The notes beneath the pieces were generated by a model that ran no database searches, was not told the DNA's origin, and saw nothing but the letters and a program-made list of their open reading frames with translations. Positions 1-14,544 of a stretch of 15,314 nt of DNA are shown here, one piece after another. Within the stretch, counting starts at the first letter, position 1; each line of letters opens with the position of its first letter. Source of the stretch: Nitrospirota bacterium (GTDB lineage Bacteria > Nitrospirota > Thermodesulfovibrionia > Thermodesulfovibrionales > Dissulfurispiraceae); assembly GCA_040758355.1 (NCBI GenBank), contig JBFLWF010000044.1:1-15314 (forward strand), read 5' to 3'. Both the position numbers and the translations under genes were made by a program.

Positions 1-48
1 CTCAAATCTCATCTTCCGTACCTCCTGTAGTAGTTCTGTCTTTTTCAT
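1..48 (-). CDS. Transposase N-terminus (ISNCY/IS1202-like), partial
   Basis: ATG at 48-46 gives MKKTELLQEVRKMRFE, which resembles the N-terminus I recall for ISNCY transposases. SD AAGGAGG lies on the minus strand at 63-57. Only 16 codons are visible. Confidence 0.7.
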   Translation of the reverse strand, partial: MKKTELLQEVRKMRFE

Positions 49-127
49 GGATAGCGCCTCCTTGCTATCCAATTTTAACCGGACAGTTTATGTGCTACAG
101 ATACGGACAGTTTATCTGTTCTCTACA
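1..127 (-). mobile_element. Left end of an ISNCY/IS1202-like insertion sequence (partial, runs off the window)
   Basis: On the minus strand the element starts TGTAGAGAACAGATAAACTGTCCG (TGT terminus at 127). It carries a 12-bp direct repeat CGGACAGTTTAT at 80-91 and 104-115 (putative transposase-binding sites), followed by an SD and a transposase-like start. Confidence 0.75.
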
Positions 128-314
128 GAATTTGCAGAAAAGACTTGACAGTGCCCCGTGGAAAATAGTTTAACATAAGGCCGTTAAAGCCGAAAAAAAC
201 TTTACAGCCTATTAGTTTGAAAATTATTTGACAGCAGGCATATTTTCTTGTAAATTTCTATCAAAAGGTTTTCTGCTAATTATAAACATCAAATCTGTCA
301 ATGAGGAGGGGGCT

Positions 315-1262
315 ATGAACAGAAAGGGCATTATCGGTGTATTTTTAGTTTTATCGATGTTGATGGTGCCGTGTAATTTGCTTGCAGGAGATGTAATGAC
401 AAAGGATTCAACTGAGAAGGATTCAGCCAGCGGCACAAGAGATAAGCCTTCAGGTAGTATAGCGAAAGGCGTAAATGCAATTATTAATGGCCTTAAAAAA
501 CCTGATGACGCACCTGATTGGTTGAAGAGGATAAACCTTAAGTTTGAGATTCAGGATGACTACAAGCCCACATATGAATTGGAGACAGTACAACCCATAT
601 TCCAGACCAACGATAACGACATGTTTTTTACACAGTTAAATGCGAGGTCGAGGAGTCATGACCAGACATACAATATGGGTCTTGGTTACAGAAATATCGT
701 TACCAATTGGCTGATGCTGGGTGTTAACGCCTTTTATGACTATACGACATATCATGACCATCAGAGATACGGCTTTGGTTTTGAAGCATTAGGGAAAAAA
801 TACGAAGCAAGGGCAAATACATATTTCAGCGCCTCTAATGCAAAGGAAATTCAGACAGGAATTTTCCAGAGGGTAATGAACGGATATGATGTAGAAGTGG
901 GTGGCTCTGTGATACCTGTAAAGGCGCTTGAGGACTTAAAGATATTTTTAGGCTATCAGAATTTCAATGCAAAATATACGGATGATTTAAAGACCTTTCA
1001 GTTAAGGATGACATATCCCATAACTCAATACACAGGAATAGAATTGAAGGCAATGAAGGACGAGAATAAGACAGAGAGATATTATGCCCAGCTTACCGTC
1101 GGACTTGATGTTCCGCAAAGGGTTAAGAGGACGAAGGACGGCAAGGATATAGACTTAAAAAAGAAACTCTTGCAGCCTGTGGAGAGGGTAAAGGATATAG
1201 TCGTTGAACAATACGCTAAGGCAGCAGGCGGATTTACAGTAAGGATAAAGAGGGGGAACTAA
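315..1262 (+). CDS. Inverse autotransporter (intimin/invasin-type) beta-barrel protein with no passenger domain
   Basis: Start placed at ATG 315 after SD GAGGAGG (303-309), with signal peptide MNRKGIIGVFLVLSMLMVPCNLLA. Invasin-beta motifs: NMGLGYR, MLGVNAFYDY, HQRYGFGFE, EARANTYF, NGYDVEVG, and linker motif LLQPVERVKDIVVEQY. The protein ends about 15 aa after the linker. Confidence 0.8.
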   Translation: MNRKGIIGVFLVLSMLMVPCNLLAGDVMTKDSTEKDSASGTRDKPSGSIAKGVNAIINGLKKPDDAPDWLKRINLKFEIQDDYKPTYELETVQPIFQTNDNDMFFTQLNARSRSHDQTYNMGLGYRNIVTNWLMLGVNAFYDYTTYHDHQRYGFGFEALGKKYEARANTYFSASNAKEIQTGIFQRVMNGYDVEVGGSVIPVKALEDLKIFLGYQNFNAKYTDDLKTFQLRMTYPITQYTGIELKAMKDENKTERYYAQLTVGLDVPQRVKRTKDGKDIDLKKKLLQPVERVKDIVVEQYAKAAGGFTVRIKRGN

Positions 1263-1264
1263 CT

Positions 1265-1939
1265 ATGAAAAAGATTATTTTGGTAATATCAGCGATTTTA
1301 CTTCTTAGCAGCATATCAGAAGTGTTGGCGGTTGAGACTTCTCTTCCTTATAATGCCAGTATGGTATACAATGTGACAGTTAACAAGTTTGAGGTATATA
1401 ACAGCACAACAGGGCTGTGGGTAACTGTAACCGCCACACCAACAACATTTAATATCGCGTCTGCAACTGCTGCTAATACGGCTGTAGGGGATATGATTTC
1501 AGGTGTAGTTCTGCCGAATGGAACATATACAAGGTTGAAATGGGAGGTAAACAGTACATTTGGAATTAAGGCATGTGAAACAGGCTCAGGAGTTTGTACA
1601 AATGGCGTACAGCAGGCTCTCAATTCTCATACCTTTTCAGCTGTTGCTGCAGGGACATACGCTACCGCTACCACAACTACTAATGTTATCGACTTCACAG
1701 CTGTTGGAGCCTGCCCTGCAAACACTGCTACAGTGACTTACACCTGCACAGCAGCCAGTTTGTCTGGCGATACAGATATAGTTGATTTTGTTATAAGCGC
1801 AGGCAGTTCAGCTAAGACAGTGAGTATCAGCTTTGACCTTAATAATGTATTTAAACATTATAGTGCAAATCATTTTGGTCCTGGTTCTCCGGAAATAATA
1901 ACACCTGGCAACCCAAGCGTAAGTGTATCATTTGAATAA
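1265..1939 (+). CDS. Secreted Thr/Ala/Ser/Val-rich beta-sandwich-like protein (DUF4382-like motif), partner of the upstream barrel
   Basis: Signal peptide MKKIILVISAILLLSSISEVLA. Alternating beta-strand patterns, an LPNGTYTRLKW motif and 4 Cys. It starts 2 nt after the barrel stop, with the SD inside the barrel 3' end. Confidence 0.7.
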   Translation: MKKIILVISAILLLSSISEVLAVETSLPYNASMVYNVTVNKFEVYNSTTGLWVTVTATPTTFNIASATAANTAVGDMISGVVLPNGTYTRLKWEVNSTFGIKACETGSGVCTNGVQQALNSHTFSAVAAGTYATATTTTNVIDFTAVGACPANTATVTYTCTAASLSGDTDIVDFVISAGSSAKTVSISFDLNNVFKHYSANHFGPGSPEIITPGNPSVSVSFE

Positions 1940-1960
1940 TTAGTATACTGTAAATCATTC

Positions 1961-1994
1961 TAAGGGCATGCAATAGCATGCCCTTATTTTGTTT
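1961..1994 (+). terminator. Rho-independent terminator
   Basis: Perfect 11-bp stem TAAGGGCATGC-AATA-GCATGCCCTTA followed by TTTTGTTT, 21 nt after the stop at 1939. Confidence 0.85.
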
Positions 1995-2047
1995 CAATTC
2001 ACATGTTCTGTGATTTCCTATTAGTATCTTCAATGCGTTATTGTATG

Positions 2048-2076
2048 TTGTAGCGATTATTGATAAAGGTTATAAT
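2048..2076 (+). promoter_or_regulatory. Sigma70-type promoter for the RNase H-like/xerD unit
   Basis: TTGTAG (2048-2053), 17-nt spacer, TATAAT (2071-2076). SD GGAGAGGAG precedes the GTG at 2110. Confidence 0.65.
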
Positions 2077-2109
2077 AAAACAAAATAAAAGACCGGGAGA
2101 GGAGATTTT

Positions 2110-2907
2110 GTGATACGGCATACATTTTCATTGCTTAACGGCATAGGCGAAAAGCTCGAAAGGCATATCTGGAGAAAGGGCATTCTGGCATGGGACGACT
2201 TCTGCAATTGCAGGGAAATAGACGGGATAAGCCCTGAGAGGAAGAGTATTTATGATAACCAGTTGATGCAGTCTTCCATGGAGCTTGGAATCGGCAATGC
2301 CGAGTACTTTGCGAGGATAATGAAGAGGAGGGAGCACTGGAGGCTGTTTGATGTGTTTAAAGACGGCGCTGTCTGCCTCGATATCGAAACCAACGGTTTT
2401 CAGCCTGGTCAGGGAGGATATGTTACGGTTGTAGGTCTTTACGACGGACATGACTGGAGATGCCTTGTCAGGGGAGAGAATCTCACAACAGAGAACCTCA
2501 ACCGGGCACTGTCAGGATACAAATGCCTTATAACATTCTACGGTGCGGTGTTTGACATACCGTTTCTTTTGAGGTCTTTCCCCGGCGTCAGATTCGATAT
2601 CCCGCACTTTGACCTCTGTTTTGCAGCACGGAGGCTTGAGATTAACGGCGGTTTGAAGAAACTGGAAACGATCTTCGGTATAGAAAGGGACGATTCTGTT
2701 AAGGGAATGGACGGCTATGCTGCTGTAAAGCTCTGGGAGCAGGCAAAGAGAGGTAGTTCGGAGGCAAGGGAATTGCTGTTGATGTACAACAGGGAAGATA
2801 CTATGAATTTATTGGAGCTTGCTGACATCCTGTATCAGAAATTGAAGATCTCTACAGGGATTGAGGAGTATATAAGTAAAGAGTTATCGGTAACGAGTAA
2901 AAGATAA
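2110..2907 (+). CDS. Ribonuclease H-like domain protein (YprB/RNase_H_2-type 3'-5' exonuclease)
   Basis: Motifs CLDIETNG, ITFYGAVFDIPFL, HFDL, GGLKKLE and YNREDT, plus an N-terminal HhH-like GIGEKLE. GTG start with a good SD. Confidence 0.85.
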   Translation: MIRHTFSLLNGIGEKLERHIWRKGILAWDDFCNCREIDGISPERKSIYDNQLMQSSMELGIGNAEYFARIMKRREHWRLFDVFKDGAVCLDIETNGFQPGQGGYVTVVGLYDGHDWRCLVRGENLTTENLNRALSGYKCLITFYGAVFDIPFLLRSFPGVRFDIPHFDLCFAARRLEINGGLKKLETIFGIERDDSVKGMDGYAAVKLWEQAKRGSSEARELLLMYNREDTMNLLELADILYQKLKISTGIEEYISKELSVTSKR

Positions 2908-2908
2908 A
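2874..2908 (+). repeat. Degenerate 7-bp tandem repeat (GAGTAAn-like) at the gene end
   Basis: AAGTAAA GAGTTAT CGGTAAC GAGTAAA AGATAAA, encoding the tail SKELSVTSKR-stop. Confidence 0.4.
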
Positions 2909-2909
2909 A

Positions 2910-3821
2910 ATGAGCATGAACAAAATAGACCCATTACTGAAAAATTTTGCCTCGTACCTTTCTGTAGAAAGGGGACTTTCTAAAAATACCGTAGATTCAT
3001 ATTGCATGGATTTAAAGGGCTTTTCGGCATTCCTTTCGGATAAAGGCAATAACATAAAGTCTTTTACACGGGAAGATATTGTGAACTATATGGGCAAGCT
3101 TAAGGATGACAGGCGATCCACTGCAAGCATATGCAGGTTCATATCTTCGATAAAGAGTTTCTCTAAATTCCTGATAATAGAAAAGATTATCTCGGAAGAC
3201 CCGACAGAAACCCTTAGATTGCCCATGCAATGGGAAAGACTTCCAAAGGCCCTCGGCATGGATGACATTAAAAAATTACTGAATTTAGACCACGAGCCTT
3301 CAGCCTTCAGTCTCCAGCCTTTATTTATCAGAGACTCTGCAATGCTTGAGTTGTTGTATTCATCAGGATTGAGGGTAAGCGAAATAATATCGATCAAGGT
3401 TAATGATCTGAATTTTGAGGGTGGATTTCTGAGGGTTATGGGCAAGGGATCAAAGGAAAGGGTTGTCCCGATGAATCATCGAGCCATGGAAAAAATAAAG
3501 AAATACACGCAGGAATTAAGACCGGATTTGCTTAAAAACAGGCAGTCGCCTTATCTTTTTTTAACGAACAGGGGAATGCCCATGACAAGGCAAAGGTTCT
3601 GGCAGGCGCTGAAGAAATTCGGCGATATGGTCGGACTGAAACTTACGCCTCATACCATAAGGCATTCATTTGCAACCCATCTCTTGGAGGGAGGAGCGGA
3701 CCTGAGGTCTGTACAGAAGATGCTGGGGCATGCCGACATATCTACCACGCAGATTTATACAAAGGTGACCGGCGACAGGATAAAGAAGGTTTATCTCGAA
3801 CACCATCCGAGAGCAAAGTGA
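2910..3821 (+). CDS. xerD: Site-specific tyrosine recombinase XerD
   Basis: Catalytic set SGLRVSE, GKGSKER, HTIRHSFATH, LGH and TTQIY. XerD-type TRQRFWQ and C-terminal HHPRA. An alternative start at ATG 2916 is possible. Confidence 0.9.
   Translation: MSMNKIDPLLKNFASYLSVERGLSKNTVDSYCMDLKGFSAFLSDKGNNIKSFTREDIVNYMGKLKDDRRSTASICRFISSIKSFSKFLIIEKIISEDPTETLRLPMQWERLPKALGMDDIKKLLNLDHEPSAFSLQPLFIRDSAMLELLYSSGLRVSEIISIKVNDLNFEGGFLRVMGKGSKERVVPMNHRAMEKIKKYTQELRPDLLKNRQSPYLFLTNRGMPMTRQRFWQALKKFGDMVGLKLTPHTIRHSFATHLLEGGADLRSVQKMLGHADISTTQIYTKVTGDRIKKVYLEHHPRAK
3294..3321 (+). repeat. 7-bp tandem repeat inside xerD
   Basis: GAGCCTT CAGCCTT CAGTCTC CAGCCTT (4 units), encoding EPSAFSLQP. Confidence 0.8.
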
Positions 3822-13881: not shown

Positions 13882-14196
13882 ATGGCATCGGTTGACACCC
13901 AATACGAACATGTAAGCATAGACGAGCATGGAGTGCCGTTCATCTCAGGCACTACCATGAAGGTTGTCGAGCTTATAGTCGAAAAGATGGCATACGGCTG
14001 GAGTCCCGAGGAGATTCATTTCCAGCACCCGTATCTTACATTGGGACAGATTTATTCCGCGCTGGCATATTACAGCGACCACGCAGAAGAGCTTGACGCC
14101 GATATTGAAAGAAGGTTGAAATCCGTCGAAGCCGCTAAATATTCGTCCGAAGCTTCATCCCTTGCAGCACGGCTGAAATCAAAAGGGCTGCTGTAA
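13882..14196 (+). CDS. DUF433 domain protein (putative antitoxin)
   Basis: Pattern GVPFISGTTMKVVELI...GWSPEEIHFQHPYLTLGQIYSALAYY. Confidence 0.85.
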   Translation: MASVDTQYEHVSIDEHGVPFISGTTMKVVELIVEKMAYGWSPEEIHFQHPYLTLGQIYSALAYYSDHAEELDADIERRLKSVEAAKYSSEASSLAARLKSKGLL

Positions 14197-14544
14197 ATGG
14201 CGGTCGGCCTTTACATGGATGTTCATATTCCAAGAGCAATTACCCTCGGTCTCCGCATTAAGAAAGTCGATGTTCTTACAGCGCAGGAAGATAACTCTAC
14301 AGATCTGTCGGATGCTTTATTGCTGGATCGCGCTACCGCTTTGAAGCGTTGCCTGTTTACTTTTGACGATGACTTGCTTGCCGAGGCCAAAAAGAGACAG
14401 GCAACAGGAGCGCACTTTTCAGGAGTAATATATGCCCATCCATTGAAAATTTCTATTGGCCGCTGTGTTCATGATTTGGAAATCATTTGCAGGGCAGGGG
14501 ATATAGAGGATTTAGCTGACAGAGTAGAATTTTTACCGCTTTGA
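14197..14544 (+). CDS. DUF5615 family PIN-like protein (putative toxin)
   Basis: Acidic PIN-like motifs LYMDVHIP, DVLTAQED, SDALLL, LFTFDDD and HFSGVIY. Coupled to the DUF433 gene by TAAATG. Confidence 0.82.
   Translation: MAVGLYMDVHIPRAITLGLRIKKVDVLTAQEDNSTDLSDALLLDRATALKRCLFTFDDDLLAEAKKRQATGAHFSGVIYAHPLKISIGRCVHDLEIICRAGDIEDLADRVEFLPL

Follow-up and report, generated by a model that had tools for sequence, protein, structure and literature searches.

A passenger-less inverse autotransporter barrel whose terminal strand probably completes a separately secreted DUF4382-related partner

We analysed a stretch of 15,314 nucleotides from a Nitrospirota bacterium (contig JBFLWF010000044.1 of assembly GCA_040758355.1; hereafter the window), which near its start carries two adjacent genes for a short inverse autotransporter barrel and a separately secreted protein, here called the partner. 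The pair is real, conserved and functional-looking. We estimate with a probability of roughly 0.6 that the partner is a displayed donor-strand passenger. According to sequence comparison and modelling, the first passenger domain would have been split after strand A and rejoined by donor-strand complementation. Our best reading is that such a passenger would be held 1:1 and non-covalently, and that it would present a variable protein, probably at the cell surface.

The partner gene starts 2 nucleotides behind the barrel stop codon and has a signal peptide of its own (recognized by eye), as the first-pass annotation of the window had stated. We obtained 166 relatives of the barrel from species-representative genomes and analysed the best 80 loci by likeness to the query; the counts thus describe the subfamily of the window barrel and not all short barrels. 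The 80 loci comprised 72 short barrels complete at the 3' end (258-397 amino acids from the first possible start), 7 long ones and 1 that was cut. Among the short barrels the partner was found directly downstream in 67 and directly upstream in 2, was missing in 1, and 2 had no room for it. Accordingly, 69 of 70 short barrels with flanking room adjoin a homologous partner, while none of the 7 long-passenger barrels does (4 of them with room). The neighbourhood survey proposed by the annotation therefore did not refute co-location, nor did close barrel homologs carry long passengers, as all of them were short. A position-blind iterated partner profile gave 95 hits in 2175 open reading frames (ORFs) of 101 loci, counting the window twice and pieces of two broken partners. 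Ninety of these adjoin a barrel, and the other 5 start within 321 nucleotides of a contig end. Starting from the partner side in metagenome loci, we found a barrel upstream in 14 of 19, the other 5 having at most 320 nucleotides upstream.

The closest homologs of both proteins are labelled Thermodesulfovibrionales or Nitrospirota. According to record titles, the pair occurs in Thermodesulfovibrionales, Arcobacter, Sulfuricurvum, Thioglobus, Piscirickettsiaceae, Planctomycetes, Omnitrophota, Negativicutes, Pelagibacterales, Methylophilaceae and Porticoccus, and 336 partner clusters at 50% identity were counted in the protein library. Its presence is patchy: PF11924 was detected in 9 of 301 genomes of the phylum, 3 of the 9 being this pair, and 1 of 4 other genomes of the genus has it. 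Five marine genomes of single-cell size carry 2-5 barrels each, and 15 of 15 partner matches in them adjoin a barrel; in the marine genome without a profile match, one of the two barrels adjoins a partner of greater divergence. Numbers of barrels and partners are equal in G314 (5 and 5), and partners outnumber barrels in G302 (4:1) and in G311 and G313 (3:2). In G302, a complete Porticoccus record, 3 of the 4 partner genes lie far from the single barrel gene (L163-L165), and one of these orphans adjoins what we take, by eye, to be a resolvase-like gene. In the Pelagibacter-type genome G314, locus L142 (G314:C6:95000-111000) holds three barrel-partner pairs within 8 kb, which differ in tails and partner types and are separated by two paralogous secreted proteins of about 380 amino acids.

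The barrel protein was matched by IAT_beta (PF11924) over residues 60-290 (E = 4.2e-32, 112 bits, cut-off 22.3), in line with the annotation. Its sequence also matched the barrels of invasin (4E1T) and intimin (4E1S). It falls in IAT_beta clusters of the protein atlas, scores far under the cut-off of every named invasin family in NCBIfam, and gave no POTRA match in the Pfam scan. We distinguished a signal peptide (approximately residues 1-25, by eye), a short periplasmic part, a 12-stranded barrel, a periplasmic helix, a luminal linker and one extra strand. The model of residues 44-315 (predicted local distance difference test, pLDDT, 87.7) shows 12 strands and a short helix, then the linker and the exit strand, and finally one more strand, modelled with low confidence. 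It superimposes on intimin residues 208-449, linker included (4E1S, Z = 24.8, root mean square deviation 2.3, 219 aligned residues). R291 is invariant in 100 of 100 alignment rows and corresponds to intimin R434, which is described in PMC13078405, where the intimin strand at the extracellular opening is also reported to be required for stability. Because the model follows intimin through the exit strand at residue 449, the extra strand of the window barrel would, by homology, be displayed outside the cell.

The annotation had placed the end of the barrel about 15 residues past the linker. The linker motif ends at Y300, exactly 15 residues follow, and the chain stops 24 residues past the invariant Arg. 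The C-terminus lies 16-26 residues after this Arg in 96 of 100 rows and 16-36 residues after it in all 100. No covalent C-terminal passenger of the Ig superfamily was found on the window barrel or on any of the 100 rows. Three long-passenger barrels that we scanned carry Big_12/FecR, prealbumin-like/carboxypeptidase-regulatory or FGE-sulfatase domains and no DUF4382. Such unusual fused passengers were seen at L078:4533-6518, L046 and L063 (FGE-sulfatase, FecR plus Big_12, prealbumin-like repeats). Separately, L137, L138, L140 and L141 (G299, G287) encode divergent inverse autotransporter barrels of 460-490 amino acids that bear a short extension. Genes for CARDB-domain lipoproteins follow closely, and these units are possibly another two-gene type Ve variant.

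The partner has a hydrophobic N-terminus (signal peptide 1-22, by eye) and 4 Cys, and its model alone was a confident all-beta fold (pLDDT 96.1). The window partner itself matched no Pfam family above the cut-off and had no real match in NCBIfam. The suggested profile search for DUF4382 (PF14321) thus gave no hit for this protein itself, but 92 of 150 members of the partner alignment matched the family at E ≤ 0.01, with 25-35 bits for close homologs (cut-off 25). In the protein atlas, the partner was assigned to unnamed clusters and to a single DUF4382 cluster (31% of members). Of 64 locus partners, 18 matched DUF4382, and none of these matches starts before model position 12. The alignment of the partner profile with canonical DUF4382 proteins (HHalign, P = 96%, E = 3.9e-9) likewise begins just past strand A. 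Canonical DUF4382 proteins of the same phylum start with a strand of the pattern G-x-h-x-h-x-h, then TDxP. The partners have no first strand and TDxP of their own (DUF4382 model positions 1-11); a motif-like match was noted in 8 of 150 rows and, by eye, belongs to a later strand. From these comparisons the partner appears to be an incomplete DUF4382-type sandwich without strand A. A lipobox was present in 24 of 28 canonical DUF4382 proteins and in 0 of 93 partners. We rejected the partner as a lipoprotein, as LPAM_1 stayed below its cut-off and there is no lipobox Cys.

Foldseek found nothing for the partner in the PDB at E ≤ 0.001. VIA structure comparison showed a weak likeness to pilin-like proteins of Bacteroides, to transthyretin and to MbnP, with scores under the usual noise threshold (Z = 4.2-4.9; best 4.9 for 4H40, 4.2 for transthyretin and for MbnP 7L6G). 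Structure searches thus assigned no fold to the partner. An insert at about residues 106-177 (mature residues 84-155) is variable (0.9 bits), whereas the sandwich core is conserved (2.0 bits). In every identity bin, divergence is faster among partners than among barrels (e.g. 0.61 vs 0.87 identity). Short partners (about 190-235 amino acids) and long Cys-rich ones (about 280-370) form one family (HHalign 99.4%).

Several relatives of the partner were seen outside the pair. L151:1504-2112, L154:1486-2094 and L155:1447-2052 encode DUF4382-like proteins of about 202 amino acids with no strand A and an N-terminal hydrophobic anchor. Their genes are flanked by a radical SAM gene on one side and a cytochrome c assembly gene on the other, and no barrel was found in G217 and G205. 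L152:85-2076 and L153:52-2148, both on the reverse strand, encode proteins of 663-698 amino acids with the partner-like domain first, no Pfam hit and a short strand-like C-terminus, which are possible self-complementing or polymer-forming relatives. P0092 (435 amino acids) has two partner-type domains in tandem behind a lipoprotein-like leader, and the three DUF4382 domains of P0191 are all complete, strand A included.

We then compared the barrel with the strand that the partners lack. The tail was the best match of the barrel to DUF4382 strand A in 36 of 100 rows (random stretches: mean 2.2, maximum 8) and among the top three matches in 56 of 100 (mean 8.4, maximum 19). The complex model of barrel and partner, which the annotation had proposed as a check, scored 0.86, while the best of 3 controls scored 0.00. 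The mark used for this score was reached by 116 of 157 solved complexes and by 2 of 215 mismatched pairs, counts which are approximate here, since custom alignments were used. Contact agreement between runs was at least 81% and partner pLDDT at least 89. The only confident interface on the barrel side consists of residues 305-315. In the model these run parallel to partner residues 185-190 and antiparallel to residues 75-78, i.e. in the strand A site. The tail alone was of low confidence (pLDDT 54-73), and in the partner modelled alone the region of segment 75-78 is a helix. Conservation is higher in the columns of the predicted interface (1.55 bits) than elsewhere (1.21 bits, p = 0.001). The sequence argument for the tail predates the complex model; the two agree, yet they draw on the same alignments. 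The first-pass annotation had thus rightly described a conserved two-gene unit with a passenger-less barrel and a partner in trans that is predicted to bind it. It missed that the partner is an incomplete DUF4382-type sandwich, with the barrel tail, on our best reading of sequence and model, as its missing strand A.

For the donor-strand passenger we propose the following route. Both proteins would be made together at a 1:1 ratio and cross the inner membrane by Sec. The barrel assembly machinery (BAM) would insert the 12-stranded barrel (fold from the model, topology by analogy with intimin); the linker would thread the lumen and place the last 15 residues at the outer face. As modelled, the last 11 residues would serve as strand A of the DUF4382/transthyretin-like sandwich, and the partner would be held non-covalently as a passenger. 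The least certain step is a single outer-membrane passage of the partner, presumably while the barrel is still open on BamA, the partner being pulled or trapped by finishing its fold on the donor strand. Heinz 2016 (PMC4943183) argues that a linker-plugged barrel cannot pass substrates. Since such a barrel cannot be a reusable pore, the simplest route would be one partner per barrel through the BamA-joined barrel, and passage while joined to BamA is thought probable for the hairpin of intimin (PMC13078405). The finished, plugged barrel would then be an anchor. The variable insert of the partner would likely be the surface that binds or shields, either in adhesion or as an alterable coat that protects from phage or predators, and partners could be swapped without any change in the barrel.

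Several observations weigh against this proposal. The 100 barrel rows are related, and G-x-h-x-h-x-h is a fairly generic strand pattern. The complex score supports the geometry of the model and says nothing of affinity or membrane side; moreover, the halves of a split fold are prone to pass such predictions through their resemblance to known folds. The pLDDT of 96 for the lone partner suggests that it may be stable without the strand. We rejected the conserved terminal RG/GG of the tail as protein evidence, because it coincides with the Shine-Dalgarno (SD) sequence of the partner; only the strand ahead of it counts. SD-like sequences were present in 50 of 70 tails and in 139 of 630 control windows; among the 46 tails with a close ATG, 41 had one. 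We found no fused barrel-DUF4382 protein when the partner alignment was compared with proteins of 441-2000 amino acids, a weak test, and the split ancestor is therefore unobserved. More distant DUF4382 relatives without strand A occur in genomes that have no barrel (L151 and L155; genomes G217 and G205), so a protein of this kind can lack the strand where there is no barrel. Beside one short barrel (L029) there is no partner, and the counts above come from one subfamily. The passage of a Cys-containing, possibly folded protein of 200 amino acids through a plugged 12-stranded barrel is unexplained without a BamA hybrid. The window's own genome also has two secretins, a point which bears on one of the alternatives below. 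Apart from this, barrel and partner distances were correlated (Mantel rho = 0.60, null maximum 0.10), which we did not accept as evidence of binding, as it reflects joint inheritance only.

The same donor-strand complex might instead form on the periplasmic side, where the partner would fold, capture the tail before threading and sit under the barrel as a cap, gate or scaffold. This is close to the topology proposed for ZirT by Heinz 2016 (PMC4943183), who argues that a plugged barrel passes no substrate and suggests periplasmic C-terminal domains. A Sec-type signal peptide and 4 Cys would suit a periplasmic protein, the complex score is silent on the membrane side, and the barrel-free relatives adjoin cytochrome c assembly genes. 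We nevertheless consider this location unlikely: the model linker follows intimin into an extracellular exit strand which intimin needs for stability (PMC13078405), only 0-10 residues separate exit strand and donor strand, and the fast divergence of the partner insert fits exposure. Somewhat less likely again is that the tail acts as a transient chaperone strand and the barrel exports several partners into the medium. ZirS does reach the medium in a ZirT-dependent manner (PMC2270342), and partners exceed barrels in the three genomes named above. But in the model two partner strands enclose the donor strand, and complexes of this kind are described as very stable (PMC13721041). Furthermore, the tight translational coupling agrees with a 1:1 ratio, and most loci are strict pairs, as in G314.

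Almost equally doubtful is that the barrel is only an anchor, with the partner leaving the cell by type II secretion or a similar machine and captured outside by the displayed strand. This would sidestep the plugged pore, and besides the two secretins in the window's genome there is one in G301, together with a GspK-like match in G304 and G309. However, a secretin match was absent from 3 of 5 genomes tested, two of which are complete records carrying the pair (G302, G303), and a GspK match was absent from 8 of 10, including the same two. These absences speak against a general requirement for type II secretion. Since PF03934 is a loose marker (positive in 10 of 14 control genomes), the secretin search carries the argument, and the secretin-free complete genomes favour export by barrel and BAM. 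A broken or frameshifted invasin, or a chance neighbourhood, is very improbable. An insertion-sequence end just upstream and the patchy presence would agree with it. The stop position, the spacing, the second signal peptide and the terminal strand are nevertheless constant across many phyla (the first three in dozens of genomes), and the invariant barrel residues are retained. The annotation had dismissed a frameshifted invasin, and the conserved features of the pair already refute it.

The positions of the genes and their signals are collected in the table. The partner's SD-like stretch, for which the annotation had claimed a separate SD, overlaps the last barrel codons and points to translational coupling, which in turn fits 1:1 stoichiometry. 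The promoter candidate is not significant alone, as the scan found 13 sites with 9.6 ± 3.2 expected. The terminator claimed by the annotation was recovered as a hairpin 22 nucleotides past the partner stop codon, the longest stem of the scan. The scan alone is weak (5 terminator-like sites in positions 1-3500 vs 2.4 ± 1.6 in shuffles). Both genes are single-copy in the window's genome (99% complete), and the operon shows no strong composition signal (G+C 0.41-0.42, genome 0.436).

Features of the barrel-partner unit and its surroundings in the window
Feature	Position	Strand	Remark
Insertion-sequence end and start of transposase-like ORF	1..127	-	outside the system, upstream of the promoter region
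Sigma-70-like promoter candidate	228..256	+	TTGACA-17-TAAATT, 10/12 match
SD-like stretch of barrel gene	303..312	+	read from sequence
Barrel gene (ORF1)	315..1262	+	315 amino acids, inverse autotransporter barrel without passenger
Linker through lumen and exit strand	1176..1214	+	residues 288-300, R291 invariant
Putative donor strand	1227..1259	+	residues 305-315, look-alike of DUF4382 strand A
SD-like GAGGGGG of partner	1250..1256	+	within the last codons of the barrel gene
Partner gene (ORF2)	1265..1939	+	224 amino acids, secreted, apparently DUF4382-related beta-sandwich without strand A
Intrinsic-terminator-like hairpin	1961..1986	+	11 pairs, G+C-rich, T run; closes the unit

The insertion-sequence end lies approximately 100 nucleotides upstream of the promoter candidate, and 125-127 nucleotides of it are identical at the ends of contigs C86, C8 and C23. 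Its translation on the reverse strand starts MKKTELLQEVRKMRFE, which we take to be a transposase. In a genome of the same genus (G090) a divergent, presumably truA-like gene is found upstream instead. Further along the window, positions 13882-14544 of the forward strand contain two small coupled ORFs of 104 and 115 amino acids, which we assume to resemble a toxin-antitoxin pair of the DUF433/DUF5615 type.

As for the wider meaning, we would give slightly less than even odds to a widespread minimal surface-display system, in which a barrel exports a separate protein in one BAM-coupled step and holds it by a donor strand, with interchangeable partners. Its range would extend from Nitrospirota and Omnitrophota to SAR11, OM43, Arcobacter and Negativicutes, with several partners per barrel in some genomes. 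If this is true, type V passengers do not have to be joined covalently to their barrels, and a mechanism is offered for the ZirT puzzle, as export of a separate protein by a linker-plugged 12-stranded barrel has been called a Gordian knot (Heinz 2016, PMC4943183). A barrel, a strand of 11 residues and one partner would be the smallest possible test case, with a precisely predicted interface. This would be the first concrete role for a DUF4382-type protein and for barrel-only inverse autotransporters, which reach up to five copies in streamlined SAR11 genomes and are thus likely to be common on very abundant bacteria. The arrangement also suggests a natural tag-and-catcher display module.

The annotation could not match the pair to a named system, but Heinz 2016 (PMC4943183) had already named a subfamily of two-partner inverse autotransporters. 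All of them have Ig-like domains behind the barrel; the tested case is ZirT/ZirS/ZirU, and the examples are Salmonella ZirT/ZirS/ZirU, SinH/SinI, Yfr4 and IatB (PMC2270342; PMC4943183; Goh 2019, PMC6714894). ZirT has 660 amino acids and ZirS is released (Gal-Mor 2008, PMC2270342; PMC6714894). 'Invasin_beta-only' groups are mentioned in passing in PMC4943183. Its Tables S5 and S6 list Pelagibacter HTCC7211 and a marine-clone operon, neither of which is in the passenger predictions of Table S7; judged by this listing alone, both may belong to the present family, for which UniProt B6BQN0/B6BQM9 of Table S5 are candidates. In the portions available to us, reviews of 2019 (PMC6555100) and 2026 (PMC13721041) describe no such form. 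Our literature search, which left most subscription papers outside, gave one paper that mentions DUF4382 (PMC8241124) and none that describes a barrel without passenger in combination with either a donor strand or a DUF4382 partner.

The window pair resembles the ZirT type in that an IAT_beta barrel gene is closely followed by a second gene, whose Sec-exported product has no barrel itself and has been proposed or shown to need that of the first. However, ZirT has Ig-like domains after its barrel and substrates resembling them, whereas the window barrel has only one strand. ZirS is released, whereas this strand is predicted to complete the DUF4382-related partner and to hold it in place. In addition, the ZirT type is enterobacterial and the window pair is environmental and spread over several phyla. 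With intimin and invasin (4E1S, 4E1T; PF11924) the window barrel shares the 12-stranded barrel, the periplasmic helix, the luminal linker with its invariant Arg and the extracellular exit strand, but it has neither a covalent Ig-like or lectin passenger nor a LysM domain. Canonical DUF4382 proteins (PF14321), mostly lipoproteins, have a beta-sandwich core homologous to the partner; they possess their own strand A and usually a lipobox, and the partners have neither.

Strand exchange, in which an incomplete sandwich is completed in trans, is used by the type V pili of Bacteroidia. In chaperone-usher pili an incomplete beta-sandwich is likewise completed by the terminal strand of another chain (PMC13721041). 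The predicted donor in the window is an outer-membrane barrel and not a pilin or chaperone, and the unit contains no usher, chaperone or protease gene. Since no donor strand is evident in the partner itself, no polymer is predicted. Type Vb secretion (TpsA/TpsB) combines a 16-stranded Omp85 barrel and POTRA domains with a beta-helical substrate, whereas the window pair has a 12-stranded inverse autotransporter barrel, no POTRA hit and a sandwich partner. In summary, the window pair would work like a two-partner inverse autotransporter, yet it lies outside both the ZirT type and the canonical passenger-bearing type.

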